From assembly GCA_964492935.1 (NCBI GenBank), contig CAZBLF010000029.1:1-13851 (forward strand): a stretch of DNA of 13,851 bases, in the 5' to 3' direction. This document shows positions 299-13,851 of the stretch, piece by piece (position 1 is the stretch's first letter; each line of letters begins with the position of its first letter). Made by a program: the position numbers and the translations under genes. This DNA is from an uncultured Methanosarcinales archaeon. GTDB taxonomy: Archaea > Nanobdellota > Nanobdellia > Woesearchaeales > JACPBV01. Under the pieces are notes generated by a model. That model searched no databases, was not told the DNA's origin, and was given only the letters and a program-made list of their open reading frames with translations.

Positions 299-1417
299 AT
301 GATTCCCGTCTGTGAACCTGCTTTTTTTGGCAAGGAAAAAGAATATGTCCAGGAATGTATGGACACTAATTGGATCTCTTCTCTAGGTAGATTTGTACCC
401 TTATTTGAGAAAGCATTTTCTGGTTTTATTGGAACGAAACATGGTATTGCATGTAGTAATGGAACTTCAGCCTTGTATTTGGCGTATGCTTCACTCGGCA
501 TTGGACCGGGTGATGAGGTTATTATTCCTAATTTGAGTAATATTGCTTCAGCTAACTCGGTTATTTTATCGGGAGCGAAGCCGGTGCTTGTGGATATTGA
601 GGAACCTTCGATGGGGATTGATGCGAGTAAGATTGAGGAGAAGATAACCAGTAAGACTAAGGCAATCTTAGTGGTGCATTTGTATGGGCATCCTTGTGAT
701 ATGGACGCAATTCTGGAAATTACTAAAAAACATAACCTGTTGTTAGTTGAGGATTGTGCTGAGGCACATGGTGCTTCGTATAAGGGTAAGAAGGTGGGTA
801 GTTTTGGAGATGCTAGCGCATGGTCCTTTTATTCTAACAAGATTTTGATGACGGGAGAGGGTGGCATGGTGCTGACGGATAGTGCGGATGTTGAAAAGGA
901 AGCTCGCCTGATTCGTGATTTGGGTTTTACGGAGCCTCGGTTCCATCATTCTGTTCTTGGATTTAATTATCGTATGACTAATATTCAGGCTGCGATTGGA
1001 TATGCGCAAGTGGAATGTGTTGATGCGATCTTAGCAAAGAAAAAGGCGCTTAAAGCGTTGTATGATGGTCTACTTGCTGATGTGCCTGGTATTAGGGTGC
1101 AGGGTGCGGCGGATTGGGCTGAACCTGTATTGTGGATGTATGTTATTTTTCTTGAAGATTCTTTTGGGATGACGCCTAAAGAACTAATGGGAGTGTTGAA
1201 AGAGAAGGGCATTGATTCACGTCCGTTATTTTTTCCTTTTCACAGACAGCCGTTGTATACTGAAGGTGGCGATGATCGGTATCCTAATTGTGAAGGTGAT
1301 TTTCCGGTTTCTGACAAGGTTTCGGAGACGGGATTGTACCTGCCTTCTGGAATTAACTTAACTGAGGAGCAGGTTGGTACGATTGTTGATGCGTTGAAGG
1401 AGGCTAGCAAGGCATGA
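299..1417 (+). CDS. PLP-dependent sugar aminotransferase, DegT/DnrJ/EryC1/StrS family
   Basis: 372 aa. The N-terminus PVCEPAFFGKEKEYVQECMDTNWIS is typical of the family, as are GTSALYLA, VEDCAEAHGA and the Schiff-base lysine context SFYSNKILMTGEGGMV. It overlaps the next gene by ATGA. Confidence 0.9.
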   Translation: MIPVCEPAFFGKEKEYVQECMDTNWISSLGRFVPLFEKAFSGFIGTKHGIACSNGTSALYLAYASLGIGPGDEVIIPNLSNIASANSVILSGAKPVLVDIEEPSMGIDASKIEEKITSKTKAILVVHLYGHPCDMDAILEITKKHNLLLVEDCAEAHGASYKGKKVGSFGDASAWSFYSNKILMTGEGGMVLTDSADVEKEARLIRDLGFTEPRFHHSVLGFNYRMTNIQAAIGYAQVECVDAILAKKKALKALYDGLLADVPGIRVQGAADWAEPVLWMYVIFLEDSFGMTPKELMGVLKEKGIDSRPLFFPFHRQPLYTEGGDDRYPNCEGDFPVSDKVSETGLYLPSGINLTEEQVGTIVDALKEASKA

Positions 1418-2112
1418 TTTCGATTATTCTTGCTACGTTTAACGAGAAAGAGAACATTCAGGATATGATTGATAGTTTGACGAAGGAAATTAAAGAACCT
1501 TTGGAGATTGTGGTGGTTGATGATAACAGTCCGGATGGAACTGCGGATTTAGTTGCTGGTTTGAAATATGATCACGTTACCTTGATTAGACGGAAGAAGA
1601 CGAAGGGTCTGGCTACTGCGTTTAATCGTGGTATTATCGAATCTAAAGGTGATATTGTGGGTTGGATGGATAGTGATATGTGTATGCCGCCTGCTTTAGT
1701 GCCTAAGATGATTTCTCTTTTGAAGGAATATGATGCGGTTGTTGGATCACGTTATGTGAAGGGTGCAAAAGATACGCGTGCTCCTATTCGAACGATTACG
1801 AGTACGATGATCAATGGATTGGCTGGCTTTGTGTTGGGATATGGGATTAAGGATTATGATAGTGGCTTTATTGTGTTGAAGCGATCGGTGTTTAACGAGG
1901 TTACACTGTATCCTAAGGGCTATGGTTCGTACTTTATTGAATTGTTGTTCGATATTCGCAAGAAGGGAATGACGGTGAAGGAGATTCCCTATACGTTTAA
2001 TGAGCGTTCGAAAGGAACATCGAAAAGCTTTTCTAGTTGGTTTAATTTGATTACTCTTGGAATGGAATATGTTATTCGGATTTTTAAAACTCGATTGAAG
2101 AGGACCCGATGA
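1414..2112 (+). CDS. Family 2 glycosyltransferase, dolichyl/polyprenyl-phosphate sugar synthase-like (DPM1/ArnC/AglD-like)
   Basis: 232 aa. ISIILATFNEKENI...VVVDDNSPDGT is the GT-A N-terminal signature, followed by a DSD acidic motif (WMDSDM). Size and layout match DPM1-type enzymes. ATGA overlaps occur on both sides. Confidence 0.85.
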   Translation: MISIILATFNEKENIQDMIDSLTKEIKEPLEIVVVDDNSPDGTADLVAGLKYDHVTLIRRKKTKGLATAFNRGIIESKGDIVGWMDSDMCMPPALVPKMISLLKEYDAVVGSRYVKGAKDTRAPIRTITSTMINGLAGFVLGYGIKDYDSGFIVLKRSVFNEVTLYPKGYGSYFIELLFDIRKKGMTVKEIPYTFNERSKGTSKSFSSWFNLITLGMEYVIRIFKTRLKRTR

Positions 2113-2483
2113 AGCTTGCGACTTTAGTAAAACCTTCGTTTACTCGTAAGGATGAACGTGGATTGTTTCAGGAAGTGCTGAATGGTGGCACGTGGAAGGT
2201 GTTGTTGCAAGGTAACATGAAACCGGGCGCCATTATGGGGAATCACTTTCATAAGAAGACTGATATTTTCTTCTTTTTGCCTTCTGGTACAGCAGATGTG
2301 TATTTGGAGCATTCTGAGACAGGAGAGAAAGAGGAATGTAAGCTAGAAGCTGAAGAGGGTATTCATATCAGTCGTCTTGTTTCTCACGCGATTAAATATA
2401 CTGCCGATAGTACCTTTATTTTGTTGAAAACTAATTTTGATGCGGACGATGAGGATCTGCACGAACATATTCTTGTAGAATAA
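2109..2483 (+). CDS. Small cupin-fold protein, FdtA/WxcM-like sugar ketoisomerase or epimerase candidate
   Basis: 124 aa. F-x-RKDERG-LFQE, then GNHFHKK followed by beta-strand-like segments (DIFFFLPSGTADVYLE), resembles the RG-x-HAHKK core of FdtA/WxcM-type cupins. It is translationally coupled to the GT2 and sits in an operon with a DegT aminotransferase. Confidence 0.55.
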   Translation: MKLATLVKPSFTRKDERGLFQEVLNGGTWKVLLQGNMKPGAIMGNHFHKKTDIFFFLPSGTADVYLEHSETGEKEECKLEAEEGIHISRLVSHAIKYTADSTFILLKTNFDADDEDLHEHILVE

Positions 2484-3158
2484 TTATTCTTTTACGGTTG
2501 AGAAGATTGTGTGTAGGTAAAATACTGTTCTTAACAGTTCTGTTGCGATGTTTAATGTATAGAACGCTAGGATGATCTGTACGTTTGCGAAGATGATGAA
2601 GGGAAATGCTACCTTGTTGAAGTCGATGAGCATGGTGAAGAGTCTTGCTGGACCTTTATTCTTTCCTTTTGCTTTCTCTAGGTTGGTTTCAGTCTTTTCG
2701 GTGTAATCGAAGACGCGTTCTCTCGCACTCGTTACTGCTAGAAGCGTTAGGGCTGCGATCAGGATGTAGATGCTGTTGAAATTGTTCCTGAAATGGAAGA
2801 ATAGACCTAGGGCTAGTGCTACATAGAAGATTCTATTTACTAGAAGATCTCCGATTGCATCGTACAGGAAGCCTTTCTTTGAGAATTTCTTGGTGATTCT
2901 CGCAATTGCGCCATCGGCACAGTCTAATAGGATACCTAGTTCGAATAGGATTACGGTTGGAAGTTTAAGGAACATGAATGCGGTTACAATGCTTGCTAGT
3001 TTTGCTAGAAGGTTTAAGGTGGTAACTTGGTTAGGGGTTGCTCTTAGTTTTAGGAGAACCCAGGTTAATGGTACTGAGAGATAGCGGTACATCATCTGGT
3101 GGATTAACTTGTAGTGCCACGGCTTCGCGCTTTTCTTTAAGATGTATTTGAAATTCAT
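2484..3158 (-). CDS. CDP-alcohol phosphotransferase family integral membrane protein (canonical motif)
   Basis: 224 aa and hydrophobic throughout. It carries the complete signature D-x2-DG-x2-AR-x8-G-x3-D-x3-D as LLDCADGAIARITKKFSKKGFLYDAIGD (nt 2847-2924). Confidence 0.85.
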   Translation of the reverse strand: MNFKYILKKSAKPWHYKLIHQMMYRYLSVPLTWVLLKLRATPNQVTTLNLLAKLASIVTAFMFLKLPTVILFELGILLDCADGAIARITKKFSKKGFLYDAIGDLLVNRIFYVALALGLFFHFRNNFNSIYILIAALTLLAVTSARERVFDYTEKTETNLEKAKGKNKGPARLFTMLIDFNKVAFPFIIFANVQIILAFYTLNIATELLRTVFYLHTIFSTVKE

Positions 3159-4123: not shown

Positions 4124-4190
4124 TCTTTCTCTTTTTACTACTTGATAATGGTACTTATATTTCATAGTGCTCCTGTTATGTTTAGGTACA

Positions 4191-4198
4191 TTTATAAA
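4191..4198 (+). promoter_or_regulatory. Archaeal-type TATA box (TTTATAAA) for the nucleotidyltransferase/kinase-fusion/RLP operon
   Basis: Exactly 30 nt upstream of the ATG at 4221, which supports 4221 rather than 4167 as the start. It begins a block (4191-4217) nearly identical to 259-284. Confidence 0.55.
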
Positions 4199-4220
4199 AA
4201 CAGTTTTGTTCTTTCAGGGG

Positions 4221-4937
4221 ATGAAAGCGTTAATTTTAGCGGCTGGAATGGGAAGTCGATTGATGCCGTATACTGAGGAAACTCCGAAGTGTTTGTTGAA
4301 GGTGGGGGAGGTTCCGATGTTGGCTTTGCAGTTGAAGGCATTGCATGCTATTGGGATTCGCGATATTGTTGTGGTTACTGGTTATTTGAAAGAGAAAGTA
4401 GAGGAAGTTGTTGGAGATCAGGGGAAATGTATCTTTAATCCTGATTTTGAGACTCATGGGATTTTGCATTCGTTTTTAGCTGCTAAAGAAGAGGTGTATG
4501 GCGAGGAATTTTTGTATTTGGCAGGAGATATTGTGTATAATGCTAAGATTCCGTCTTTGATTGCTTCTGGTAAAGGAGATATTGCTATTGGTGTTGATCG
4601 GAAGCCTTGCAACGAGGAGCATTCAAAAGTGTTAGTTGAGAACGGCCAGGTTGTGGAGATGGCTAAGACGATTGTTTGTGGGGAAGCTACTGGTGAATTT
4701 GCTCATATTGCTAAGTTTTCTAAGGAAGGCAGTAAGGCGTTCTTTGATGTGATTGAGGAAACGCTTGCTGAGAAAGATGCGCGTGCGTATATGATGGATG
4801 CGTTGAACAAGGTTCGCGACAAGGGTTTGGTTATGCTTCCGGTGTACACTGACGGGTATGCTCGGATTGAAATTGATTTTATTGAGGATTTAGAGAAAGC
4901 CCGAAAGATGGTGTTTCATGAAACTGACGCTCGTTAG
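4221..4937 (+). CDS. Sugar- or alcohol-phosphate nucleotidyltransferase (LicC/IPCT/PntC-like)
   Basis: MKALILAAGMGSRLMPYTEETPKCLLKV is the G-x-G-(S/T)-R...PK nucleotide-binding signature. It is 238 aa from the ATG at 4221. The track ORF begins at 4167, but that extension would start upstream of the TATA box. It overlaps the next gene by 20 nt. Confidence 0.8.
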   Translation: MKALILAAGMGSRLMPYTEETPKCLLKVGEVPMLALQLKALHAIGIRDIVVVTGYLKEKVEEVVGDQGKCIFNPDFETHGILHSFLAAKEEVYGEEFLYLAGDIVYNAKIPSLIASGKGDIAIGVDRKPCNEEHSKVLVENGQVVEMAKTIVCGEATGEFAHIAKFSKEGSKAFFDVIEETLAEKDARAYMMDALNKVRDKGLVMLPVYTDGYARIEIDFIEDLEKARKMVFHETDAR

Positions 4938-6309
4938 ACACGGTCAGACTGAGGAAAATGCTTCTGGTATTATTCAGGGACAGAGTCGTGGAACGTTAAG
5001 TGAAAAGGGGAAGCTGCAGGCTGCGGAGCTTGGGGAGACTTTGAAGAATCATTCTTTCGATGTGATTATTTCTAGTAGTTCTAATCGTGCCAAGAATACG
5101 GCGTCGGTGATTGGTGAGGGGCATGATGTTGCATTGGAGTTGTCTGATGCAATTCGTGAGAGAAATTTGGGTGTTGCAGAGGGAACTGCTGTAGGGGCGG
5201 CACATGGGTTGATGAAGGAGACGCCGGAAGGTGGGGAATCGTTAGCTCAGGTTAGGGATCGTGCCGAGGCGTTTGCTCGAGAATTGCTTGCAAAAGAATA
5301 TTCTTCTTGTTTGATTGTATCGCATAATGGATTTCTTGCGCATTTGATGGGATTTTTTCAGGCAAAGGCAATTGATTCTTGTTTAGACTTTAAAATTGAA
5401 CATGGTGAAGTTTTGGAGATTGATATTTCTCTCGTTGATGTGGGGAATTTGAATTATGTATACAAGATTACGCTGAATGGAATTACTGGATATTTGAAGC
5501 AGGCTCTGACAGAGTATCGTAAATCGTTTCCTGGTGAGAAAGAGTTGCCGTTGAAAGAGGATCGATTGGCGAATGAGGTTGCTGCTCTGAAGCAATTGAA
5601 TGCTTTGGATGTTTCTGGTTTTACCTTTCCTTCGGTGTTGTCGTATGATGCTGCCCATAATCTAGTGTTGTTATCTGAAATTACGGGAAAAACATTGCTC
5701 TCTTATTTCTTGGAGGGTGTTTTTGATGAAGCGCATGCTTCTGCTGCGGGAGATGCTCTGGGATTGTTGCATGCGGTGGATGCTGCTGGCATTCGAAAGG
5801 ATGATGATGCTTTCTTTAAGGAGATTGTTCGGTTTCGAAGCGTGGTGAGTAGTCATGCGCTAGGTTCGGAGCATCAGAAATTGATTGCTGAACGGTTTGA
5901 TACTATTTTTGCTGATGGTTTTCCAAAATCTTTGTTGATTGGTGATTTTTCTCCTAAGCAGTTGTTGTTATCTGGAGGTTCTGTGGGTGTTGTGGACTTG
6001 GAATTTGCTTGTAAAGGTGATGCGGCATTCGATGTTGGCTTTTTCTTGGCGCACTATGTGCTGGAGGAGATGAAGGGTGCTGATTCTGGTGCGGTAGAGG
6101 GTGCTATGAAGGCCTTTATTGAGGCGTATGGGAAGCATGTTGCTATTGAAGGGATGAAATCAAGGATACTTTTTTATATGGGAGCGGGATTACTCAATAG
6201 AGTCGATGGCACGGTTCGGGGTGGCGATATCAATGAAGCAATTGTCGCTGCTATCAGGGAACGATCGATAAAAATTATTAGTGGGGAAGTAACCTATGGA
6301 ATGGGATAA
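4918..6309 (+). CDS. Bifunctional fusion: N-terminal histidine phosphatase (PGM/cofactor-dependent mutase family) plus C-terminal MtnK-like (APH/choline-kinase fold) kinase
   Basis: 463 aa. Residues 1-~168 carry LVRHGQTEEN (RHG motif), SSSSNRAKNTA (conserved Arg) and IVSHNGFL (second His). From residue ~175, VGNLNYVYKI and GYLKQAL match the MtnK GDGNLNYVF and IIKQAV motifs. IGDFSPKQLLL is the catalytic-loop Asp, VVDLEFACKGDAAFDVGFF the D-x-EF metal loop, and MGAGLLNRVDG matches the MtnK C-terminal helix. Confidence 0.8.
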   Translation: MKLTLVRHGQTEENASGIIQGQSRGTLSEKGKLQAAELGETLKNHSFDVIISSSSNRAKNTASVIGEGHDVALELSDAIRERNLGVAEGTAVGAAHGLMKETPEGGESLAQVRDRAEAFARELLAKEYSSCLIVSHNGFLAHLMGFFQAKAIDSCLDFKIEHGEVLEIDISLVDVGNLNYVYKITLNGITGYLKQALTEYRKSFPGEKELPLKEDRLANEVAALKQLNALDVSGFTFPSVLSYDAAHNLVLLSEITGKTLLSYFLEGVFDEAHASAAGDALGLLHAVDAAGIRKDDDAFFKEIVRFRSVVSSHALGSEHQKLIAERFDTIFADGFPKSLLIGDFSPKQLLLSGGSVGVVDLEFACKGDAAFDVGFFLAHYVLEEMKGADSGAVEGAMKAFIEAYGKHVAIEGMKSRILFYMGAGLLNRVDGTVRGGDINEAIVAAIRERSIKIISGEVTYGMG

Positions 6310-7495
6310 CGACATAACAATAACTTATTTTATCAAGAAGGCGATTGCCACGAAGAAATCGTTGCGCGAGGTTGTAGATACCATTGCAGCAGGGATTAGT
6401 ATTGGGACGCTACAGGTAGCATATGATGCTCATACCACTAAATGGCACGCGGATAAGGCTGCGAATCCTAATGCGTATAAGGCAGAGGTTGAGGAGTATA
6501 GCGTATTGCCGATGGATGAGAATTCTGCTGTTGTGAAAATTAAGGTTTGTAGTGATTTAATGGATTTGAAGCATTGTTCTTTCGCGACGTTGCTCTCTTT
6601 TATTGCTGGCGATGTTTTTGGGACGTCGTATGACGCGGAAGAGATTCGCGTTTTGGATATTGACTTTTCTGAAAAGGCATTGGCTCAGTTTAAGGGTCCT
6701 AAATTCGGAAGTGAAGGTATTCGGAAGATGCTTGGATTGGAGAATAGTGATCGGCCGTTGCAGGCTTTGATTTTGAAACCGAATACCGGTCAGCCAAGTT
6801 CTCATTACGCCGATATTGCTTACAAGGCTGCATTAGGTGGGATGGATTTCATCAAGGATGACGAATTAAACATTAATCCTACGTCGTGTCCGTTTGAGGA
6901 GCGTGTCAAGATGATTTGTGATGCGTTGAAAGAGGCTGAAAAGGAGACGGGCAAGAAAACTATCTATGCTCCAAATATTTCGTTCCGACCTGAATATATG
7001 AAGGAATATGCTCGAAAAGCTATTGCGGCTGGAGCTAGTGCATTGATGATGAATATTGTGTATGTGGGTATGACTGCGGTGCAGATGATTGCTGAGGATC
7101 CGGAATTTAATGTTCCTATTTACGTGCATCGAGCAGGACATGATTTCTTTACGAGAAATGAGGTAGGTATTGCGATGCCGGTTATGACTAAGTTTTTCCG
7201 ATTGTCGGGAGCTGACATTATGTCGGTGGGTCCGGTCTTTGGTGGTTTAGAGACGAAGGAAACGGTTAAGAAGACGTATGAAGCAGTTAATGCGGATATG
7301 TATGGCATTAACAAGTCTCTTGCTGTTGTTTCTCGATCAAGTAAGGATATTGTTCAGGGTACTGTGGATTGGTTGCAGACGAAGAATGTGATGTTCTTGG
7401 CGGATGGCGGAATTTACAACGGTCCTGAAGGTATTACTGCTACAACCAAAGAGATGAAAGAGACGATTGAGAAAGTTCAGATTCAATCTGCTTGA
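6296..7495 (+). CDS. RuBisCO large-subunit-like protein (form IV RLP), not a carboxylase
   Basis: 399 aa. DRPLQALILKPNTGQ...GGMDFIKDDELN aligns by eye to GRPLLGCTIKPKLGL...GGLDFTKDDENV. VHRAGH corresponds to IHRAMH, and RLSGADIMSVGPVFGGLE to MSGGDHIHSGTVVGKLE. The K334 and H327 equivalents are lost. It overlaps the upstream kinase fusion by 14 nt. Confidence 0.85.
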   Translation: MEWDNDITITYFIKKAIATKKSLREVVDTIAAGISIGTLQVAYDAHTTKWHADKAANPNAYKAEVEEYSVLPMDENSAVVKIKVCSDLMDLKHCSFATLLSFIAGDVFGTSYDAEEIRVLDIDFSEKALAQFKGPKFGSEGIRKMLGLENSDRPLQALILKPNTGQPSSHYADIAYKAALGGMDFIKDDELNINPTSCPFEERVKMICDALKEAEKETGKKTIYAPNISFRPEYMKEYARKAIAAGASALMMNIVYVGMTAVQMIAEDPEFNVPIYVHRAGHDFFTRNEVGIAMPVMTKFFRLSGADIMSVGPVFGGLETKETVKKTYEAVNADMYGINKSLAVVSRSSKDIVQGTVDWLQTKNVMFLADGGIYNGPEGITATTKEMKETIEKVQIQSA

Positions 7496-8313
7496 TTTTT
7501 TAATTTTTTATAGTTTTCTTCTGGAAGTAATTGGGATGCTAGGGTTGCGTCGCGTCCGTGGAAGTCGGAGCCGCCTGAAAGTAATAAGTTTAGTTTTTCT
7601 GCTTCCTTTTTTATGGTAGATGCGGAATATTTTTCGAATGCATCTGCACGATAGGGATAGAAGTGTTCTATTGCGTCTCCGCCTGCCTTTTTGAAATCGT
7701 GGATGAGTGTTTTGGCATCGGTATTGCTGTAGACGAGGGGATGTGCTAGTATTGCTAAGCCGCGAGCATTATGAATTGCATCGATTGCTTGTTTGAAGGT
7801 GGTTGTTTGCTTTCTGTTTTTGTAGGCAGGTTGTCCATTGCCGATGAGGGTATCAAATACCTGGTCAGGGGTTTCTAGTTGTTTGTTGTTTTTCATGAGG
7901 ATTGATGCGATGTGTGGGCGGCCGATCGTTCCTTTCGCTAGTTTGTGTACTTCCTCGTACGTTATCTTGTAGCCGAGCTTTTGTAATGCTTGTATCATGT
8001 CTTTCTTTTGTACTATTCTCGCTTTTTGGGCTTTGTCAACGATTTCTAGAATGTCTTTGTGGTTTGGGTCGATGAAGAGACCGAGAATGTGGATATCGGA
8101 GTGTTGTGGATGATCTGCGGTTATTTCGATGCCCGGAACTACGGTGAGTGTTGTGTTCTTGGCTGCTTTTTGTGCAGCTGCGATGCCTGCGGTGGTGTCG
8201 TGGTCGGTTATTCCGATGACATCTAGGCGTTCTTTTAGCGCTGCATCAATTAATTCTTTTGGAGAAAGCTTGCCGTCGGAGGCGGTGGTATGAGTATGGA
8301 GATCGATGCGCAT
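7483..8313 (-). CDS. PHP-domain metal-dependent phosphoesterase (TrpH/YciV-like); candidate 3',5'-bisphosphonucleotide (pAp) phosphatase
   Basis: 276 aa. MRIDLHTHTTASDG is the PHP His-x-His start, followed by ITDHDT, the ILAHP His and GGSDFHG. It is the last gene of the Sat-CysC operon, with only 3 nt between it and cysC. Confidence 0.75.
   Translation of the reverse strand: MRIDLHTHTTASDGKLSPKELIDAALKERLDVIGITDHDTTAGIAAAQKAAKNTTLTVVPGIEITADHPQHSDIHILGLFIDPNHKDILEIVDKAQKARIVQKKDMIQALQKLGYKITYEEVHKLAKGTIGRPHIASILMKNNKQLETPDQVFDTLIGNGQPAYKNRKQTTTFKQAIDAIHNARGLAILAHPLVYSNTDAKTLIHDFKKAGGDAIEHFYPYRADAFEKYSASTIKKEAEKLNLLLSGGSDFHGRDATLASQLLPEENYKKLKNQAD
7496..7510 (+). terminator. Oligo-T tract (TTTTTTAATTTTTTA), a candidate archaeal intrinsic terminator for the RLP operon
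   Basis: It follows the RLP stop codon (7493-7495) directly. The same bases on the other strand encode the Lys-rich C-terminus (KKLKN) of the convergent PHP gene. Confidence 0.35.
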
Positions 8314-8316
8314 GCC

Positions 8317-8832
8317 TTAACAAATTCCCTTGTCTTTTAAAGCTTGTCTTAGTTGTTGTGCTGCTTGTTCTGGTGTTGTGTTTTGGGTGTCTATTGTGAC
8401 TTCGGGTTGCTCAGGTTCCTCGTAAGGTACATTTAATCCTACGAAGTCTTTTATCTCTCCTGATCTGAATTTTTTATAGTGACCTTTGACATCTCGTTCC
8501 TCGCAAATTTCGATTGGGCATTTGATGTAGACTTCGATGAATTTTTTTATCTGATTTCTGGCATATTCTCTAATTGCCTTGGTGGGAGAGATGACGCAGG
8601 CTATGCTCAGGATGTGGTCGCTTGTTAAGAGTGCACAAATATCTGCTACTCTTGTGATGTGCTTGTCGCGATCTTCTTTTGTATAGCCGAGATCCTTAGA
8701 AATGGTTTTTCTGACGATATCTCCATCTAATAGAGCTACCTGGATGTTTTCTTTTCTTAATTGCTCTACTAATAGCTCGGCAATGGTGGATTTTCCTGCT
8801 CCGGAAAGCCCGGTAAACCAGATTGTGGTCAT
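8317..8832 (-). CDS. cysC: Adenylylsulfate (APS) kinase
   Basis: 171 aa. IWFTGLSGAGKSTIA is the P-loop, LDGDIVR the substrate motif, and SPTKAIRE follows. ATGA overlap with sat. Confidence 0.92.
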   Translation of the reverse strand: MTTIWFTGLSGAGKSTIAELLVEQLRKENIQVALLDGDIVRKTISKDLGYTKEDRDKHITRVADICALLTSDHILSIACVISPTKAIREYARNQIKKFIEVYIKCPIEICEERDVKGHYKKFRSGEIKDFVGLNVPYEEPEQPEVTIDTQNTTPEQAAQQLRQALKDKGIC

Positions 8833-9971
8833 ATGAGGACCTCGTGAGATAATTCTTGTGCAACTTCTTTGCGCATGAACTCTTTTGGTGGAATCTCTTT
8901 CTTAGACAACATGTCACGGATGAGTGTTCCAGAGATTTCGATTTGTTCCTCTACAGGATGCGGACACGTCTTTTCTGTTGCGATGGAATCACAGTGTTTG
9001 CAGAAGTAGGGTCCTTTTAGTTTGAGGATTTCAATGCCTAGATCATCGAATTTGTCGGTGAACTCCTGGGCTTCGTACTTTTTGTAAAATGAGCCTACAC
9101 CTGCGTGGTCGCGACCTACAATGAAATGGGTGCATCCGAAGTTTTTACGGATGATTGCGTGGAAGACGGCCTCTCGGGGTCCGGCATAACGCATCTGGGT
9201 AGTGAGTGCCGATAAGATTGCACTGTTTTTCGGATAATAGTGTTCGATTAAGGTTTTGTAGCCGTTGATGACGGCTTCTGGAGTGTAGTCGCCCTTCTTT
9301 TTCCAGCCGATTAGGGGATGGAGTAGGATTCCATCTGTTAATTCTAATGCTGCTTTTTGCAAATATTCGTGTGCACGGTGAGGTACGTTTCTTGTCTGGA
9401 AGCCGGTGATTGTTTTCCAGCCTCGCTTCTCGAACTCTGCTCGGGTTTGTTTAGGTGTTAGTTGTACGCCGGGTACAATTGGATCGGGTTCGCCAATCAT
9501 ATCGATTTCTCCTGCAAGCATGATATTGCCGGAATCGTGAAGCTTTTTTACTCCAGGATGGGTTAGATCTTGAGTTCCGAAAATGGCTTGGGATGCTTCG
9601 GTGAGATTAGCCGTATAGATTTGCTCGAGATGCATCTGGGCAATAAGCTTATCATTTTCGTCGAATAGATTGATGTCGTCGCCCTCCTTGACGTTTTCTG
9701 GTACCTTTTGCAGTGGACAGGTCACCGGAACGGTGAACGGGAGATTGTTTTCTAGTCTCGACTCGTGCAGAATGTTGAGAAAGTCGTTCTGAGTTACAAA
9801 TCCTTGTAGCGGTGAAAAAGCTCCTTGTGCAATATTTGCAATATCTAGGATCGTTTCTCGGCTGATGGTGATTTTGGGTAGTTCGTTTGCCTGTGCGATT
9901 GCCTTTTCTCTTCTTTCTCCGGTGAGTAATCGGTCAATTAATTCATTTCCATGTGGTTTATTTGCTTTCAT
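8829..9971 (-). CDS. sat: Sulfate adenylyltransferase (ATP sulfurylase), short homo-oligomeric type
   Basis: 380 aa. GFQTRNVPHRAHE corresponds to the QxRNPxHxxH motif, and HFIVGRDHAGVG is also present. A C-terminal C-x2-C-x8-C-x-H cluster (FCKHCDSIATEKTCPH) resembles the Cys/His zinc site of Thermus/archaeal-type enzymes. Confidence 0.92.
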   Translation of the reverse strand: MKANKPHGNELIDRLLTGERREKAIAQANELPKITISRETILDIANIAQGAFSPLQGFVTQNDFLNILHESRLENNLPFTVPVTCPLQKVPENVKEGDDINLFDENDKLIAQMHLEQIYTANLTEASQAIFGTQDLTHPGVKKLHDSGNIMLAGEIDMIGEPDPIVPGVQLTPKQTRAEFEKRGWKTITGFQTRNVPHRAHEYLQKAALELTDGILLHPLIGWKKKGDYTPEAVINGYKTLIEHYYPKNSAILSALTTQMRYAGPREAVFHAIIRKNFGCTHFIVGRDHAGVGSFYKKYEAQEFTDKFDDLGIEILKLKGPYFCKHCDSIATEKTCPHPVEEQIEISGTLIRDMLSKKEIPPKEFMRKEVAQELSHEVLI

Positions 9972-11646
9972 TTGTGCCCCCGTGTTGTTTGAAAAATCCT
10001 AGGAATTCATCTACCTTGTGGACTTCCACCATATTGATGATCTTTCGGTGATTAGGAAATACTGCTCCTGCGAGGACGATGGTGTCTTGCTCCTCGATTA
10101 ATTGATTCTTGATACAGGCCATGATTGCCTCCTTCTTTTGCTCGACGGATCCCGAATTATCTATTTCATGCTCGACTTGTAATGGGATGACTCCTCTTAG
10201 GAGTTTCAATCTTCTTACGATTTTTATGTTGCTTGTTAGTGCTATAATGGGGAATGAGCTATTGAATCTCGCTAGCATTCTCGCGGAAAAGCCGCCATGA
10301 GTGATACAGAGGAGCTTGTCGATATGCGTATGCTTTGAGAGATCGATAATCATCTTTGAGCAGGCGTCGCTGGGATCGGTGGACTCGTTATCATTCTCTA
10401 AATCGAGAATTGGCGTTTCCTCCTCGCATTCTTGAATGACTGTTGACATTACTTTGACTGCTTGTTCCGGGTTTGCGCCTATCGCCGTTTCACCGGAGAG
10501 CATGACTGCGGACGCGCCATCCATGACTGCGGACGCGATATCTGCTACCTCTGATTTCTTCGGTAGTGGTTGCGTTACCATCGAATGGAGCATTTCTGTA
10601 GCGACGATGACTGGCTTTGCTCTTTTATTTCCTTCTTCGATGATATGCTTCTGAAGCATAGGGACTTTTTGGAAGGAGACTTCGCTTCCTAGGTCTCCCC
10701 GATCGATCATGATGCCATAGGCTGCTTCGATGATGCCGGAAACATTTTTGATTGCTTCCTGATTCTCTACTTTTGCAATGATTTTGATTGTTGATCCCTC
10801 TAACTTTTTTTCTACCGTTCGAACTTCGTCTGCAGTATTGACGAATGATAGCCCGACGAAATCTACTTGTTCTTTTTTTGCGAATGCTATACACTTGTTT
10901 TCTTTTTCCTGTATAGATTCGCGGCTGAGGATCGCTCCGGGAATATTGACGCCTTTGCCTTCTTGTAGGACTGCATCATGCTGGACGAGGCAGGTTACGT
11001 TGTTTCCATCGATTGATTGTACGGTAATTGCGATTGAGCCGTCATCCATGAGCAACTCTTGCCGAGGTTTGACGTGTTTTGGGAATTCAGGTAGATCGAC
11101 ACCGATAGCATCTCCTTCTGGAGTGGTTGAGAGGATGATTGTGGAGTTGGCTTTGAGGATGCGAGGCTCTTTTAATCCGCGAACGCGTACTTTGGGGCCA
11201 GGGATGTCTAATAGAATAGGAATAGTTGCGTCTACTTCGCGTACTTTCTTGATGATGTCGCTATGTTGTTCGGGATTGCCGTGGGATGAATTTATTCTTG
11301 CTACATCCATCCCTGCATTCTTGAGTTTGGTGATTTCTTCAATGGAATTGGTTACAGGACCGATCGTTGCGATGATTTTTGTCTTCTTGATCATGATTTG
11401 CCTTGTAGATCCGATTTCGGCGAGAATTTCTTTAGTTGTGGCAGACTCGTGATTGAGAACATAGAAGATTGCGTTTCCTAAGGACTCTGCTTTGACTACG
11501 GACTCGTCTTCCAGTTCCTTGAGAATTTTGTGGGCACTTCCTACGCTGATGGAAAGAGTTTTGGCGATTTGATTAATCGTTAATCGGCGAGATGCATTTC
11601 TATCTAGAAACGAAATGATCTTTTGGGTGTTTTTGGAGACTGCCAT
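9958..11646 (-). CDS. Fusion of an N-terminal winged helix-turn-helix domain (~aa 1-80) to a full-length pyruvate kinase (A, B and C domains)
   Basis: 562 aa. The wHTH is LTINQIAKTLSISVGSAHKILKELEDESVVKAESLGNAIFYVL. The PK motifs are KTKIIATIGP, ARINSSHG, DIPGPKVRV, KIIAKVENQEA, IMIDRGDLGSEV, VIVATEMLHSM and VMLSGETAIG, with a C-domain ITHGGFSARMLARF...PIIALT. An internal Met85 (nt 11394-11392) sits at the domain junction. It is the first gene of the sat-cysC-PHP operon, with a 14-nt overlap with sat. Confidence 0.85.
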   Translation of the reverse strand: MAVSKNTQKIISFLDRNASRRLTINQIAKTLSISVGSAHKILKELEDESVVKAESLGNAIFYVLNHESATTKEILAEIGSTRQIMIKKTKIIATIGPVTNSIEEITKLKNAGMDVARINSSHGNPEQHSDIIKKVREVDATIPILLDIPGPKVRVRGLKEPRILKANSTIILSTTPEGDAIGVDLPEFPKHVKPRQELLMDDGSIAITVQSIDGNNVTCLVQHDAVLQEGKGVNIPGAILSRESIQEKENKCIAFAKKEQVDFVGLSFVNTADEVRTVEKKLEGSTIKIIAKVENQEAIKNVSGIIEAAYGIMIDRGDLGSEVSFQKVPMLQKHIIEEGNKRAKPVIVATEMLHSMVTQPLPKKSEVADIASAVMDGASAVMLSGETAIGANPEQAVKVMSTVIQECEEETPILDLENDNESTDPSDACSKMIIDLSKHTHIDKLLCITHGGFSARMLARFNSSFPIIALTSNIKIVRRLKLLRGVIPLQVEHEIDNSGSVEQKKEAIMACIKNQLIEEQDTIVLAGAVFPNHRKIINMVEVHKVDEFLGFFKQHGGTNESK

Positions 11647-11647
11647 A

Positions 11648-11669
11648 TTAGTGAATGATTATTCACTTA
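11648..11669. promoter_or_regulatory. Inverted repeat (candidate operator) directly upstream of the HTH-PK start codon
   Basis: TTAGTGAAT (11648-11656), a gatt spacer, then ATTCACTTA (11661-11669). The core AGTGAAT/ATTCACT is a perfect 7-nt inverted repeat. It lies between the minus-strand TATA (11681-11688) and the ATG (11646). Confidence 0.5.
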
Positions 11670-11680
11670 ATTTGTGCTTG

Positions 11681-11688
11681 TTTATAAA
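11681..11688 (-). promoter_or_regulatory. Archaeal-type TATA box (TTTATAAA, palindromic) for the HTH-PK/sat/cysC/PHP operon
   Basis: 42 nt upstream of the ATG at 11646. The implied ~10-15 nt leader contains the inverted repeat. Confidence 0.45.
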
Positions 11689-11714
11689 GACATCGCTTTT
11701 TGAGACGTTATATC

Positions 11715-11723
11715 ATTCACTTA
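11715..11723 (+). promoter_or_regulatory. Third copy of the 9-mer ATTCACTTA, upstream of the rightward promoter
   Basis: An exact direct repeat of 11661-11669, 54 nt away. It ends 16 nt upstream of the TATA at 11739. Confidence 0.4.
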
Positions 11724-11738
11724 CTATTTTCCCATATG

Positions 11739-11746
11739 TTTATATA
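11739..11746 (+). promoter_or_regulatory. Archaeal-type TATA box (TTTATATA) for the CDP-alcohol-transferase-like/GT4 operon
   Basis: 29 nt upstream of the ATG at 11768. This supports 11768 rather than 11615 as the start. Confidence 0.5.
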
Positions 11747-11767
11747 GCGTGTGCTGCTCATAGGGGT

Positions 11768-12436
11768 ATGGTTAAGATTCCTGCTAAGTATGATCGAAGT
11801 GTGGTGATGCGTGTTTTCGCGCGTCCGGTAGGGAATTTGATGATTCCTCTTTTTATGAAGCTCGGTATTACAGGAAATCAACTTTCGATCTTCAATATCT
11901 TTTTTACGTTGTTTAGTTTTCTGTTGATTGGGACTGATAGTTTAGTCATTGGTGCTTTGTTGTTGCAATTTACTATTATTTTTGATACGATGGATGGTAC
12001 TTTGTCTAAAATGAGAAAGCAGAAGTCGCTGTATGGGCGGTATCTAGAAAAGATTTGGCATAATGCGATTGTTCCTTTCTTGTTCGTTGCGCTTGGATGT
12101 AATGTGACTTTGAACAACGGAGATAGTATGTATTGTTTGATTGGATTCTTCATTACGGGATCGATCTTGGTCGTTAATCTTATTGAATTTATTCGTCGGT
12201 ATACGTTTCAGGTTGCTCCTAAGGCACTGGATGCTGATCAGACGGTGAAATCTGAGAAATCGTTGTTGCAGATTGTGGTGCGAGCTATCGGAGATACTTC
12301 GTACATCTTCATGTACGTGTTGGTGTTTGGATATGCTGGTTACCTGGATATGCTGGTGTTGTTTTACGGAGTCTTTTACGGATTGTTGTTTGTTGTCAAA
12401 TTCTTTCAGTTTCTTGGAAAACCAAAGGGTTTTTAA
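11768..12436 (+). CDS. CDP-alcohol phosphotransferase-like integral membrane protein with a degenerate signature motif
   Basis: 222 aa from the ATG at 11768; the track start at 11615 would overlap the PK gene and both promoters. It is hydrophobic throughout. The motif DTMDGTLSKMRKQKSLYGRYLEKIWH (nt 11984-12061) reads D-x2-DG-x2-SK-x8-G-x3-E-x3-H, so AR is replaced by SK, the third Asp by Glu and the fourth Asp by His. Confidence 0.6.
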   Translation: MVKIPAKYDRSVVMRVFARPVGNLMIPLFMKLGITGNQLSIFNIFFTLFSFLLIGTDSLVIGALLLQFTIIFDTMDGTLSKMRKQKSLYGRYLEKIWHNAIVPFLFVALGCNVTLNNGDSMYCLIGFFITGSILVVNLIEFIRRYTFQVAPKALDADQTVKSEKSLLQIVVRAIGDTSYIFMYVLVFGYAGYLDMLVLFYGVFYGLLFVVKFFQFLGKPKGF

Positions 12437-12459: not shown

Positions 12460-13482
12460 ATGGTCAAGATTGGTTTAGTTAGTCCGTTTTTACCGGAACA
12501 GGATGGTATTGCTGTGTATAGCGATAATCTGTATGTTGGTGCGGGTAAGAAAAACATTGTTCGTATTGGTCGGGTGAAGGGTGACTGTGAGTATGTGGTT
12601 GATTTTACTTCTTTTAGTTTACGGAGCAAGCTGGAGCATATTATTGCTAAGGAGAAATTGGATGTGGTGCACTTTCAGTATGTTGCCTCTCTTTTTGGGA
12701 AACGTAATTTGAATCTTGCATTTATTCGGGCGCTCTCGTTGTCGGTTCCGGTTGTGGTGACATTACACGAGGTGCAGTATGGTCAGGGGGGGATGCGGAA
12801 TAGGTTATTGTCGATGTTGGAAAAGAAGATTATTTCTCGTGCGGCTCTGGTTATTGTACATACCCCTGAACAACGAACGTTCTTGGAGAAAAAATATGGT
12901 GCTTCGAACATTCGGTGCATCTATCACGGGTTGTGGAGCAAGTCTGGTGGGGTTGGAGATGCTAAAAGTGTGTTGTTCTTTGGGATGATTTCTGAAGCGA
13001 AGGGTGTTCCCTCCTTAATTGGTGCGATGGATTATCTGGGTGATTATTCTTTGACTATTGCTGGAAGGTTTGTGGATGATGCTAGTGAGAAGTCTGTGAG
13101 AGATGCTCTGAAAAAGAGTGCGGCAAAGATTACTACTGATTTTGGATGGATTGACGAGAAAAAGAAGGAATTATTGTTTCGGAAGGCTGCTGTTTGTGTT
13201 TTACCGTATACGTGGGCACCGTATCAGTCTGGGATTTTGCATAATGCGTTGTCGTTTCAGGTTCCGGTTGTGGTTACTGATGTTGGTGCTTTGCCGGAGA
13301 TTGTTTCTTCGTTTCATTGTGGCGAGGTTGTTAACACTGATGCAAAATCGCTTGCTGCAGGTATTGAAAAGGTGGTGCGACAACCAGGTAGGTATCGTAC
13401 GGGAATTACTAGTTATCAAAAGAAGGCTGACTGGAAGGTTGTTGCTGAAGAACATATGACCTTGTATGGTGGCTTGAAGTAA
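12460..13482 (+). CDS. GT-B fold glycosyltransferase, family 4-like
   Basis: 340 aa. It has the MVKIGLVSPFLP N-terminus, LFFGMISEAKGV, and a C-terminal LPY...SGILHNALSFQVPVVVTDVGALPEIV block homologous to the GT4 donor-binding region. The usual E-x7-E acidic residues are not obviously conserved. Confidence 0.75.
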   Translation: MVKIGLVSPFLPEQDGIAVYSDNLYVGAGKKNIVRIGRVKGDCEYVVDFTSFSLRSKLEHIIAKEKLDVVHFQYVASLFGKRNLNLAFIRALSLSVPVVVTLHEVQYGQGGMRNRLLSMLEKKIISRAALVIVHTPEQRTFLEKKYGASNIRCIYHGLWSKSGGVGDAKSVLFFGMISEAKGVPSLIGAMDYLGDYSLTIAGRFVDDASEKSVRDALKKSAAKITTDFGWIDEKKKELLFRKAAVCVLPYTWAPYQSGILHNALSFQVPVVVTDVGALPEIVSSFHCGEVVNTDAKSLAAGIEKVVRQPGRYRTGITSYQKKADWKVVAEEHMTLYGGLK

Positions 13483-13515: not shown

Positions 13516-13851
13516 ATGTTATCGTGTAAGGCATTTTTCGAATTACTCGTCAAGGATGTAGGTTTCTTTACAGGTGTTCCTGATTCTTTGCTGAAAGATT
13601 TTTGTGGTTATGTTGCTGATCACGCAGAGAAGCATGTGATTGCTGCGAATGAGGGTAATGCTGTTGGTATTGCAGCCGGATATCATCTTGCTTCGGGTAA
13701 GGTGCCCTTAGTGTATATGCAGAATTCTGGTCAGGGAAACGCGGTGAATCCGTTGTTATCGTTGGCAGATCCGAAAGTGTATGGTATTCCTATGCTCTTG
13801 CTTGTTGGGTGGAGAGGCGAACATGGTGTTGCAGATGAAACTCAACATGTT
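13516..13851 (+). CDS. ppd: Partial CDS (N-terminal 112 codons; runs off the window end): thiamine-diphosphate-dependent phosphonopyruvate decarboxylase
   Basis: Not in the ORF track because it has no stop. My translation is [154 protein letters not shown] and NPLLSLADP are the hallmarks I recognise from Ppd/AepY N-terminal TPP pyrimidine-binding domains. Confidence 0.72.

Follow-up and report, generated by a model that had tools for sequence, protein, structure and literature searches.

A phosphonopyruvate decarboxylase gene and a predicted 2-hydroxyethylphosphonate pathway in a surface-glycan island of a probable DPANN archaeon

The stretch of DNA considered here, positions 1 to 13,851 of contig CAZBLF010000029.1 and hereafter called the window, holds glycosyltransferase, CDP-alcohol phosphotransferase-type and nucleotidyltransferase genes together with an operon for sulfate activation, and is cut at its last position within a gene for a phosphonopyruvate decarboxylase (Ppd; Table 1). 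This report concerns that gene and the carbon-phosphorus (C-P) pathway to which we assign it.

The window ends within a phosphonopyruvate decarboxylase gene

An earlier note, made from the letters of the window, had described an open frame running from the ATG at 13516 to the window end, absent from the accompanying list of open reading frames (ORFs), with three motifs of phosphonopyruvate decarboxylases. Translation of the plus strand from 13516 to 13851 indeed gave 112 stop-free codons containing all three motifs, and each of the remaining five frames over this region carries three to seven stops; the frame went unlisted only because the list leaves out ORFs that continue past the window end. 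The ATG at 13516 is the earliest start past an in-frame TAA at 13480, itself the stop codon of the preceding glycosyltransferase gene, and the gene callers chose the same start on six public contigs. The 112-residue fragment matched the Ppd model TIGR03297 at E = 1.1e-45 (156 bits, a score held down by the absence of two thirds of the protein), the sulfopyruvate decarboxylase alpha model at E = 4.1e-20 (72 bits) and acetolactate synthase models at about 20 bits, and it also matched Pfam TPP_enzyme_N. The Ppd frame is thereby confirmed as a real observation, far beyond chance.

An exact-protein look-up with the upstream glycosyltransferase returned 22 public contigs, of which six were fetched. 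These are 99.6-99.9% identical to the window at the nucleotide level, gapless, over 4-11 kb, and we therefore take them to come from the same population and to be usable for sequence beyond the window. Reading from two anchors, the window glycosyltransferase and the protein P0001 (an exact copy, encoded by the last gene of public contig L001), covered about 36 kb of the lineage, and this is the extent to which the absences reported below refer where 36 kb is named.

In all six fetched contigs the frame runs on to a protein of 369 residues (11057-12166 of L001). At full length Ppd scored 491 bits on TIGR03297, spanning model positions 2-360 of 360 and clearing the cut-off of 312.5 bits by 179, and fell below the cut-offs for both ComD (92.2 vs 147.95 bits) and ComE (126.2 vs 221.5 bits), the pair represented by TIGR03845/TIGR03846; acetolactate-synthase models gave about 30 bits. 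We also sought the hallmarks of thiamine diphosphate (TPP) enzymes, a cofactor-activating Glu in the N-terminal domain and GDG(x)24-27NN in the C-terminal domain. The Glu lies in ANEG at residues 44-47, within the part encoded by the window, and the GDG..NN motif reads GDGAFIMHMGSAAVIGAQSCKNFKHIVINN at residue 253; Pfam TPP_enzyme_N and TPP_enzyme_C were both matched. The identity proposed in the earlier note thus held at full length, and model scores and motifs identify the frame as the beginning of a genuine phosphonopyruvate decarboxylase.

The window departs from all six other contigs at only two sites between 9892 and 13851. Both of these, at 13823 and 13840, are C to A differences within 29 nt of the window end that give P102H and P108T in Ppd, hitting conserved Pro codons of a WRGEPG..DEPQH segment, and they are probably assembly or sequencing errors at the contig end.

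Genes downstream of Ppd predict a route to CMP-2-hydroxyethylphosphonate

In the same-population contigs Ppd is followed by a gene for an iron-containing alcohol dehydrogenase (Fe-ADH), two sulfatase-family genes (Sulf1 and Sulf2), a 67-codon ORF (orf67) and then, on the opposite strand, a gene that fuses a cytidylyltransferase (CyTase) to a phosphoenolpyruvate (PEP) mutase (CyT-PepM). A pepM gene had been expected downstream or nearby, and an alcohol dehydrogenase sought there; both are present, the latter directly after Ppd. The PepM domain scored 406.2 bits on TIGR02320 (cut-off 319.55) and carries EDKVGLKKNS at residue 260, which fits EDKxxxxxNS, the motif that sets PEP mutases (Ppm) apart from the rest of the isocitrate-lyase superfamily. 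Every contig long enough links the PEP mutase to Ppd, about 3.8 kb from the Ppd stop. The comparison of Ppd with ComDE and the search for pepM had been named beforehand as the checks that could overturn the assignment, and both favoured it.

ComDE, from the coenzyme M pathway, is homologous to Ppd, comparable to it in size and likewise a 2-oxoacid decarboxylase that depends on TPP, and a sulfopyruvate decarboxylase of this kind might work with the ATP sulfurylase and adenosine 5'-phosphosulfate (APS) kinase of the window in a sulfonate pathway: the fragment matches ComD at E = 4e-20, and genes for synthesis of 3'-phosphoadenosine 5'-phosphosulfate (PAPS) lie 2-5 kb upstream. This idea, prompted by the PAPS genes, was rejected at the sequence level by the model scores, the Ppd model being passed and the ComD and ComE cut-offs missed. 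The genomic partner of Ppd is moreover a PEP mutase on the same contig and not ComA, ComB or ComC, no comA, comB or comC genes being present, and the PAPS block is absent from a sister lineage that keeps the same Ppd operon. We consider a sulfonate role to have almost no likelihood.

The CyTase domain matched the solved Fom1 CyTase (5x3d) at E = 5.9e-54 with 61% identity over residues 4-137 (134 residues), and has HTGH, an HxGH nucleotidyltransferase motif, at residue 15. Fom1 has the same architecture, with a PF01467 CyTase N-terminal to PepM, and 23.6% of known Ppm enzymes are PF01467 fusions (Rice 2019, PMC6697681); in the portion of that article which cites Cho 2017, the Fom1 CyTase is described as turning 2-hydroxyethylphosphonate (HEP) into its cytidine monophosphate conjugate, CMP-HEP. 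This Fom1-like domain is most probably the phosphonate-activating enzyme of the island. The LicC-like nucleotidyltransferase of the window, to which the earlier note had given that part, sits in a separate kinase/RuBisCO-like module and does not appear to fill it.

The start of the Fe-ADH gene overlaps the Ppd stop codon by 4 nt, a sign of translational coupling, and its best NCBIfam match is the phosphonate Fe-ADH model TIGR03405 (PhpC/FomC-like). The PepM-Ppd-FeADH triad recurs at homologous fusions in Planctomycetes, Woesearchaeota, Akkermansia and Methanoculleus loci, and it is because of this recurrence and the coupling to Ppd that we read the Fe-ADH as a phosphonoacetaldehyde reductase.

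In the pathway that we propose, the PEP mutase domain of the Fom1-like CyT-PepM would convert PEP to phosphonopyruvate (PnPy), which Ppd would irreversibly decarboxylate to phosphonoacetaldehyde (PnAA), so pulling the unfavourable mutase equilibrium; curated models and motifs show what these two enzymes are, as far as sequence can. The Fe-ADH would then reduce PnAA to HEP, from which the CyTase domain would make CMP-HEP, two steps that we infer from close homology and gene order. Hypothetically, HEP would next be moved from CMP-HEP to a glycan or lipid acceptor, either by the CDP-alcohol phosphotransferase-type proteins or by Sulf1 and Sulf2, and the adjacent flippase would export the product.

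Domain scans, called genes and tblastn revealed no MpnS- or HepD-type oxygenase and no class-V, PhnW-type transaminase for 2-aminoethylphosphonate (AEP) in about 36 kb, and the predicted product is therefore HEP, in the form of CMP-HEP. AEP could still be made through a transaminase elsewhere in the genome, with an unrelated role for the Fe-ADH: AEP is the commonest product, at 56% of ppm neighbourhoods (Li & Horsman 2022, PMC8942020), the Fe-ADH falls below the cut-off of the curated phosphonate Fe-ADH model, and the window encodes a DegT aminotransferase. The DegT protein fits LegC/PseC models, however; together with the lack of a class-V enzyme noted above, the overlap of Fe-ADH with the Ppd stop, the same pair following homologous PepM fusions in many phyla, and a fused CyTase of the Fom1 (HEP) type rather than the PF12804 PntC (AEP) type, this makes AEP an improbable product.

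The three early enzymes, including the CyTase-PEP mutase fusion, are also those of the fosfomycin pathway of Streptomyces wedmorensis (Fom1, Fom2 and FomC), which runs through the series predicted here, from PEP through PnPy, PnAA and HEP to CMP-HEP. The island might accordingly direct synthesis of a small-molecule antibiotic of the fosfomycin type, with CMP-HEP as a transient intermediate and not a surface donor. Against this, about 36 kb yielded no radical-SAM methyltransferase (Fom3), HppE-type epoxidase (Fom4) or FomD-like hydrolase, and the genes nearby encode glycosyltransferases, a flippase and nucleotide-sugar enzymes. We think an antibiotic very improbable and predict instead that CMP-HEP serves as a donor. 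The host, unlike Streptomyces, is probably archaeal.

The island as a whole has the content of a surface-glycan locus, with GT2, GT4, GT9, PMT_2, flippase and GDP-mannose dehydratase genes, and finding Ppd, pepM and glycan genes together supports the earlier suggestion that archaeal C-P chemistry is here tied to a glycan island. Nitrosopumilus maritimus offers a close parallel among aquatic archaea: as described in the sections of Lockwood 2022 (PMC9381506) and PMC8942020 that deal with its cluster, PepM, Ppd and Fe-ADH make HEP, glycosyltransferase, nucleotidyltransferase and arylsulfatase-family genes are neighbours, and the phosphonate is thought to be an exopolysaccharide ester. The island differs in having no MpnS, in the fusion of PepM to a Fom1-type CyTase and in its Nanoarchaeota and Woesearchaeota relatives. 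HEP itself is the final head group of the exopolysaccharide of Stackebrandtia nassauensis, an actinobacterium with a PhpC-like Fe-ADH, going by its description in part of Li & Horsman 2022 (PMC8942020). HEP-branch ppm neighbourhoods with a PhpC-like Fe-ADH, including those of N. maritimus and S. nassauensis, make up 8.5% of catalogued clusters. Ppm-fused cytidylyl activation beside CDP-alcohol-type genes is likewise seen in PntC-type AEP clusters and the 'Burkholderiales CDP-OH family' (PMC6697681; PMC8942020); those clusters use a transaminase to make AEP and mostly have PF12804 domains, whereas the island follows the HEP branch and includes a CDP-alcohol transferase with a variant signature.

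The host is most likely a DPANN archaeon

The best-matching labelled sequences come from Nanoarchaeota and Woesearchaeota. The leader of Ppd is too short for a typical Shine-Dalgarno sequence, and a TATA-like box precedes its ATG (Table 1). A TATA-like octamer made up of A and T only stands at -40 to -15 in nine of the 12 genes that lead operons, whereas the frequency over all positions is 5.9% (binomial P about 2e-9, on a background that is mostly coding, intergenic DNA being AT-richer). In the operon-leading genes of the window and L001 these octamers are centred about 26 nt before the start codon, without a usable leader, which is the layout of archaeal leaderless-type promoters.

The host is most likely a DPANN archaeon, and the archaeal producer that the earlier note had thought plausible is supported by the DPANN-labelled relatives and the TATA boxes. 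Its comparison with the methylphosphonate clusters of marine Thaumarchaeota did not carry over: the nearest relatives are labelled Nanoarchaeota and Woesearchaeota, and MpnS is absent from the 36 kb. A global marine survey gives only Thaumarchaeota and Crenarchaeota as archaeal producers, and full-text searches of a limited library yielded no paper that connects phosphonate synthesis with DPANN archaea.

A collinear sister lineage carries a methylphosphonate synthase cassette

The closest locus in a representative genome (L007) belongs to a Caspian Sea metagenome-assembled genome (MAG) labelled 'Nanoarchaeota archaeon' (JAQBWB010000006.1; L116 and L117 lie on the same contig). It is collinear with the island over more than 30 kb at 62-95% amino-acid identity, the glycan genes being 75-95% identical, the Ppd-FeADH-Sulf1-Sulf2-orf67 module 62-71% and CyT-PepM 79%. 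Between the flippase gene and orf67/68 the window's lineage has CyT-PepM only, whereas the sister lineage, whose CyT-PepM is placed beside the Ppd operon, has at this site a PntC-PepM fusion (329 bits on TIGR02320), a 447-residue protein and a free PntC-like gene. The 447-residue protein (L007 1690-3033, the same as L116 15466-16809) scored 531 bits on N. maritimus MpnS (6b9s) and 269 bits on HEPD (6b9r), and the printed alignment shows that it keeps the residues at 6b9s positions 148, 152, 190, 162 and 184; we take H148, Q152, H190, F162 and I184 of 6b9s to be MpnS markers. Its NCBI label is only 'helix-turn-helix domain-containing protein'.

Among 5.8 billion proteins this MpnS has two close relatives (84% and 65% identical), followed by a large group at 54-58% in which every named member is from Thaumarchaeota. 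The two close relatives adjoin Ppd genes only 52-57% identical to that of the window and therefore belong to other lineages; one of them, P0122 (84%, on a Tara contig), was considered as the MpnS of the window's lineage and rejected, its adjacent Ppd being only 52% identical. A literature search found no paper reporting MpnS in DPANN.

These observations bear on whether the head group made by the window's lineage is methylphosphonate (MPn), with an MpnS elsewhere in the genome and MPn esters as in N. maritimus. The presence of PntC-PepM, MpnS and PntC between flippase and orf67/68 in so close a relative speaks for this, as do the use by MpnS of HEP, which the island is predicted to make, and the lack of a complete genome for the lineage. 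Against it, tblastn with the sister MpnS gave no match in 16 loci of the window's lineage, about 36 kb; at least eight independent contigs read Flippase-CyT-PepM-orf67 at the syntenic site, leaving no room for the cassette; and the only close MpnS relatives sit beside the divergent Ppd genes just described. We judge MPn unlikely, and HEP remains the head group that we predict.

The two collinear sister lineages thus appear to differ by a head-group cassette, predicted to give HEP only in the window's lineage and HEP plus MPn in the Caspian one. A broader picture, which we offer tentatively and as less probable than not, is that sister DPANN lineages bear different cassettes on one glycan island, the marine lineage displaying HEP and the Caspian one methylphosphonate, and that Thr-nucleophile proteins may transfer the CMP-phosphonates.

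Two further features of the sister locus have no counterpart at the corresponding positions of the window's lineage, which is readable up to DegT. A 105-residue N-terminal fragment of an Fe-ADH (L007 16706-17023) lies between the canonical CDP-alcohol transferase and cupin genes and looks like a rearrangement remnant, and a PhyH-family dioxygenase gene (L007 19319-20086) adjoins DegT, its product matching methylphosphonate hydroxylase weakly (98 bits, cut-off 500).

Candidate enzymes for transfer to the acceptor

Sulf1 and Sulf2 are translationally coupled to each other in the same operon after Fe-ADH, and both are conserved together with Ppd-FeADH in the two lineages. Type I sulfatases are defined by a C/S-x-P-x-R motif that is converted to the catalytic formylglycine; neither protein has this motif, Thr replacing the formylglycine-forming Cys or Ser in each. 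Thr at that position marks the branch of the alkaline-phosphatase superfamily that carries out phosphoryl transfer (NPP, LtaS, EptA). By sequence, then, Sulf1 and Sulf2 cannot be canonical sulfatases, and they could be CMP-phosphonate phosphodiesterases or transferases. A Kyte-Doolittle scan found no hydrophobic segments in either. We know of no description of transfer from CMP-phosphonates by cytoplasmic Thr-nucleophile proteins of this superfamily.

The earlier note had also tied two CDP-alcohol-transferase-type proteins of the window to phosphonate. Both score above the PF01066 gathering cut-off of 22 (42.7 and 30.8 bits), and only the minus-strand protein has the full canonical signature DxxDGxxAR...GxxxDxxxD; the link to phosphonate is tenuous. 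The other protein has DxxDGxxSK...GxxxExxxH. An exhaustive search with it found only 28 representatives at E <= 1e-10. In 19 of 23 sequences (the closest 22 aligned with the window protein) His takes the place of the usual catalytic Asp as fourth signature residue; it is therefore a conserved variant and not a decayed copy. The signature of the subfamily (relatives P0242-P0273) can be written DxxDGxxAR..Gxxx[D/E]xxxH.

Members of the His-variant subfamily tend to adjoin a second CDP-alcohol transferase of about 224-243 residues within glycan loci (L121-L124), a pairing that hints at a heteromeric pair, the canonical motif being confirmed only for the window and L007 copies; the canonical protein of the window is a likely partner of its His variant. 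For a phosphonate role speaks the position of the His-variant gene as the first of the co-directional run that contains Ppd. In two Planctomycetes MAG loci (L008 1106-1897 and L009 9175-9966) a CDP-alcohol transferase gene of the same strand is placed upstream of CyT-PepM-Ppd-FeADH, 29 bp away; the encoded proteins are canonical (DCIDGNVAR..GAKLDDIAD), and this arrangement is an independent co-occurrence of the family with the HEP/CMP-HEP pathway. We also noted, in two of the His-variant glycan loci (L123 504-2609 and L124 1637-3742), a gene for a 701-residue protein of the GDP-mannose dehydratase type with an intein-like LAGLIDADG insertion.

Assessment and significance

Taken together, we assign a probability of roughly 0.8 to the reading that Ppd catalyses the second step of a pathway to HEP, encoded in a cell-surface glycan island of what is probably a DPANN archaeon; the product of that pathway probably decorates the cell surface. 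A number of points weigh against it. The window itself holds only 112 Ppd codons, and for everything downstream we rely on further assemblies of that population. The Fe-ADH reached 170.8 bits on TIGR03405, short of the cut-off of 423.7 and only just above other Fe-ADH families, and no solved phosphonoacetaldehyde reductase was found among its relatives; the specificity of the CyTase for HEP is taken from its 61% identity to Fom1. The lineage lacks a genome bin, so that MpnS or a transaminase may be encoded outside the part that was read. The host assignment rests on MAG labels and promoter architecture, a tRNA scan of the window, L112, L116 and L007 having found none and no marker gene having been found. 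As to transfer, the relatives P0243 and P0244 of the His variant (four loci, L121-L124) come from glycan loci that lack both pepM and ppd and show no phosphonate gene within 8 kb, which weakens the case for a dedicated phosphonate transferase, and in the sister lineage the His-variant gene belongs to the kinase/RuBisCO-like operon and not with Ppd.

The kind of pathway that makes HEP is already known, and earlier work has already described, around ppm, cytidylyl activation, CyTase fusions, and neighbouring genes of the CDP-OH type and the sulfatase family. What is new is the probable DPANN host, the natural pair of collinear loci, one HEP-only and one containing MpnS, the recognition that the "sulfatases" cannot be sulfatases, and the His-variant CDP-alcohol transferase subfamily. 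To our knowledge very few phosphonate producers are known; through this locus they are joined by a cosmopolitan population, most likely DPANN, that has a complete predicted HEP pathway and no MpnS in about 36 kb. Paired with a relative that has MpnS at the same site, the locus provides a test bed for HEP versus MPn decoration and for the enzyme that moves phosphonate from its CMP conjugate to a glycan. It also cautions that the labels "sulfatase" and "HTH protein" are misleading in such clusters. Its wider relevance is to the marine sources of HEP and MPn: degradation of phosphonates by C-P lyase fuels aerobic release of methane and ethylene, according to the part of Lockwood 2022 (PMC9381506) that cites Repeta 2016.

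Occurrence of the population

At least 20 contigs, drawn from many metagenomes, carry sequence more than 99.6% identical to the window, and an island protein is also recorded in the Tara Oceans gene set. The contigs of the lineage include ERZ1030316 NODE_226 (36.8 kb) and JGI 3300048645 Ga0496646_0000410 (30 kb). On the public record there were no exact-protein matches for DegT or the canonical CDP-alcohol transferase, and those for the GT2 protein were on short contigs only. A metagenome scan with the epimerase, a gene too conserved for this use, returned 80 loci at 77% identity or less, none from the window's population.

Other genes of the window

Table 1. Features of the window and of its downstream continuation on public contig L001. 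Coordinates refer to the window unless L001 is given.
Feature	Position	Strand	Remarks
DegT/LegC-type aminotransferase (299-1417), GT2, small FdtA-like cupin	299..2483	+	88-92% identical in sister lineage
Canonical CDP-alcohol phosphotransferase	2484..3158	-	DCADGAIAR..GFLYDAIGD
LicC/PntC-like nucleoside triphosphate (NTP) transferase	4167-4937	+	first gene of 4167..7495 operon
His-phosphatase and APH-type kinase fusion	4918-6309	+	4167..7495 operon
RuBisCO-like protein	6296-7495	+	4167..7495 operon
Operon: winged helix-turn-helix (wHTH)-pyruvate kinase, ATP sulfurylase, APS kinase, PHP-family 3',5'-bisphosphate nucleotidase-like	7483..11646	-	
CDP-alcohol phosphotransferase-family membrane protein, His variant	11615..12436	+	DxxDGxxSK..GxxxExxxH; public gene calls start at 11651
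GT4-family glycosyltransferase	12460..13482	+	directly upstream of Ppd; 74% identical neighbour of Ppd in sister lineage
TATA-like box TTTTTAAAAA	13486..13495	+	-30 to -21 from Ppd ATG
Ppd gene, 5' third (112 of 369 codons), cut by window end	13516..13851	+	motifs, TIGR03297
Sulf1, PF00884	L001 13325-14707		just beyond window end; TDHSR, Thr at formylglycine position
Sulf2, PF00884	L001 14704-15798		just beyond window end; Thr aligned to Cys of sulfatase 6hr5
CyT-PepM fusion (PF01467 cytidylyltransferase and PEP mutase), 433 residues	L001 15995-17296	-	outside window, about 4.6 kb past its end

The kinase/RuBisCO-like module is only 26-42% identical to its counterpart in the sister lineage (L007 12088-15783, minus strand), and its flanks are 68-92% identical, a pattern that suggests cassette replacement in a hypervariable glycan locus. 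Its NTP transferase is 32% identical to the PntC domain of the second PepM of the sister lineage. The RuBisCO-like protein scored about equally as form III RuBisCO (198 bits, cut-off 497) and as an MtnW-type RuBisCO-like enolase (179 bits). The module looks like a separate route from kinase through cytidylyltransferase to CDP-alcohol, a second head-group activation module present in both lineages. We had considered whether the RuBisCO-like protein, the His-phosphatase and the pyruvate kinase might form a PEP supply line for PepM; this was unsupported, the RuBisCO-like protein lying far below the form III cut-off, and an enolase gene is absent and pyruvate kinase consumes PEP.

The minus-strand operon that follows encodes PAPS synthesis and removal of 3'-phosphoadenosine 5'-phosphate, but no gene of the island can be recognised as coding for a sulfotransferase. 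The operon is missing from the sister lineage, which is collinear in other respects; it appears to have been inserted between the RuBisCO-like and His-variant genes, and is probably not part of the C-P pathway. Its pyruvate kinase (417 bits on TIGR01064) has an N-terminal winged-helix domain. At the other end of the window, the DegT protein matches LegC/PseC nucleotide-sugar aminotransferase models best and has GT2 and an FdtA-like cupin as neighbours; judged by these matches it is not an AEP transaminase, and the three genes belong to the same glycan island.

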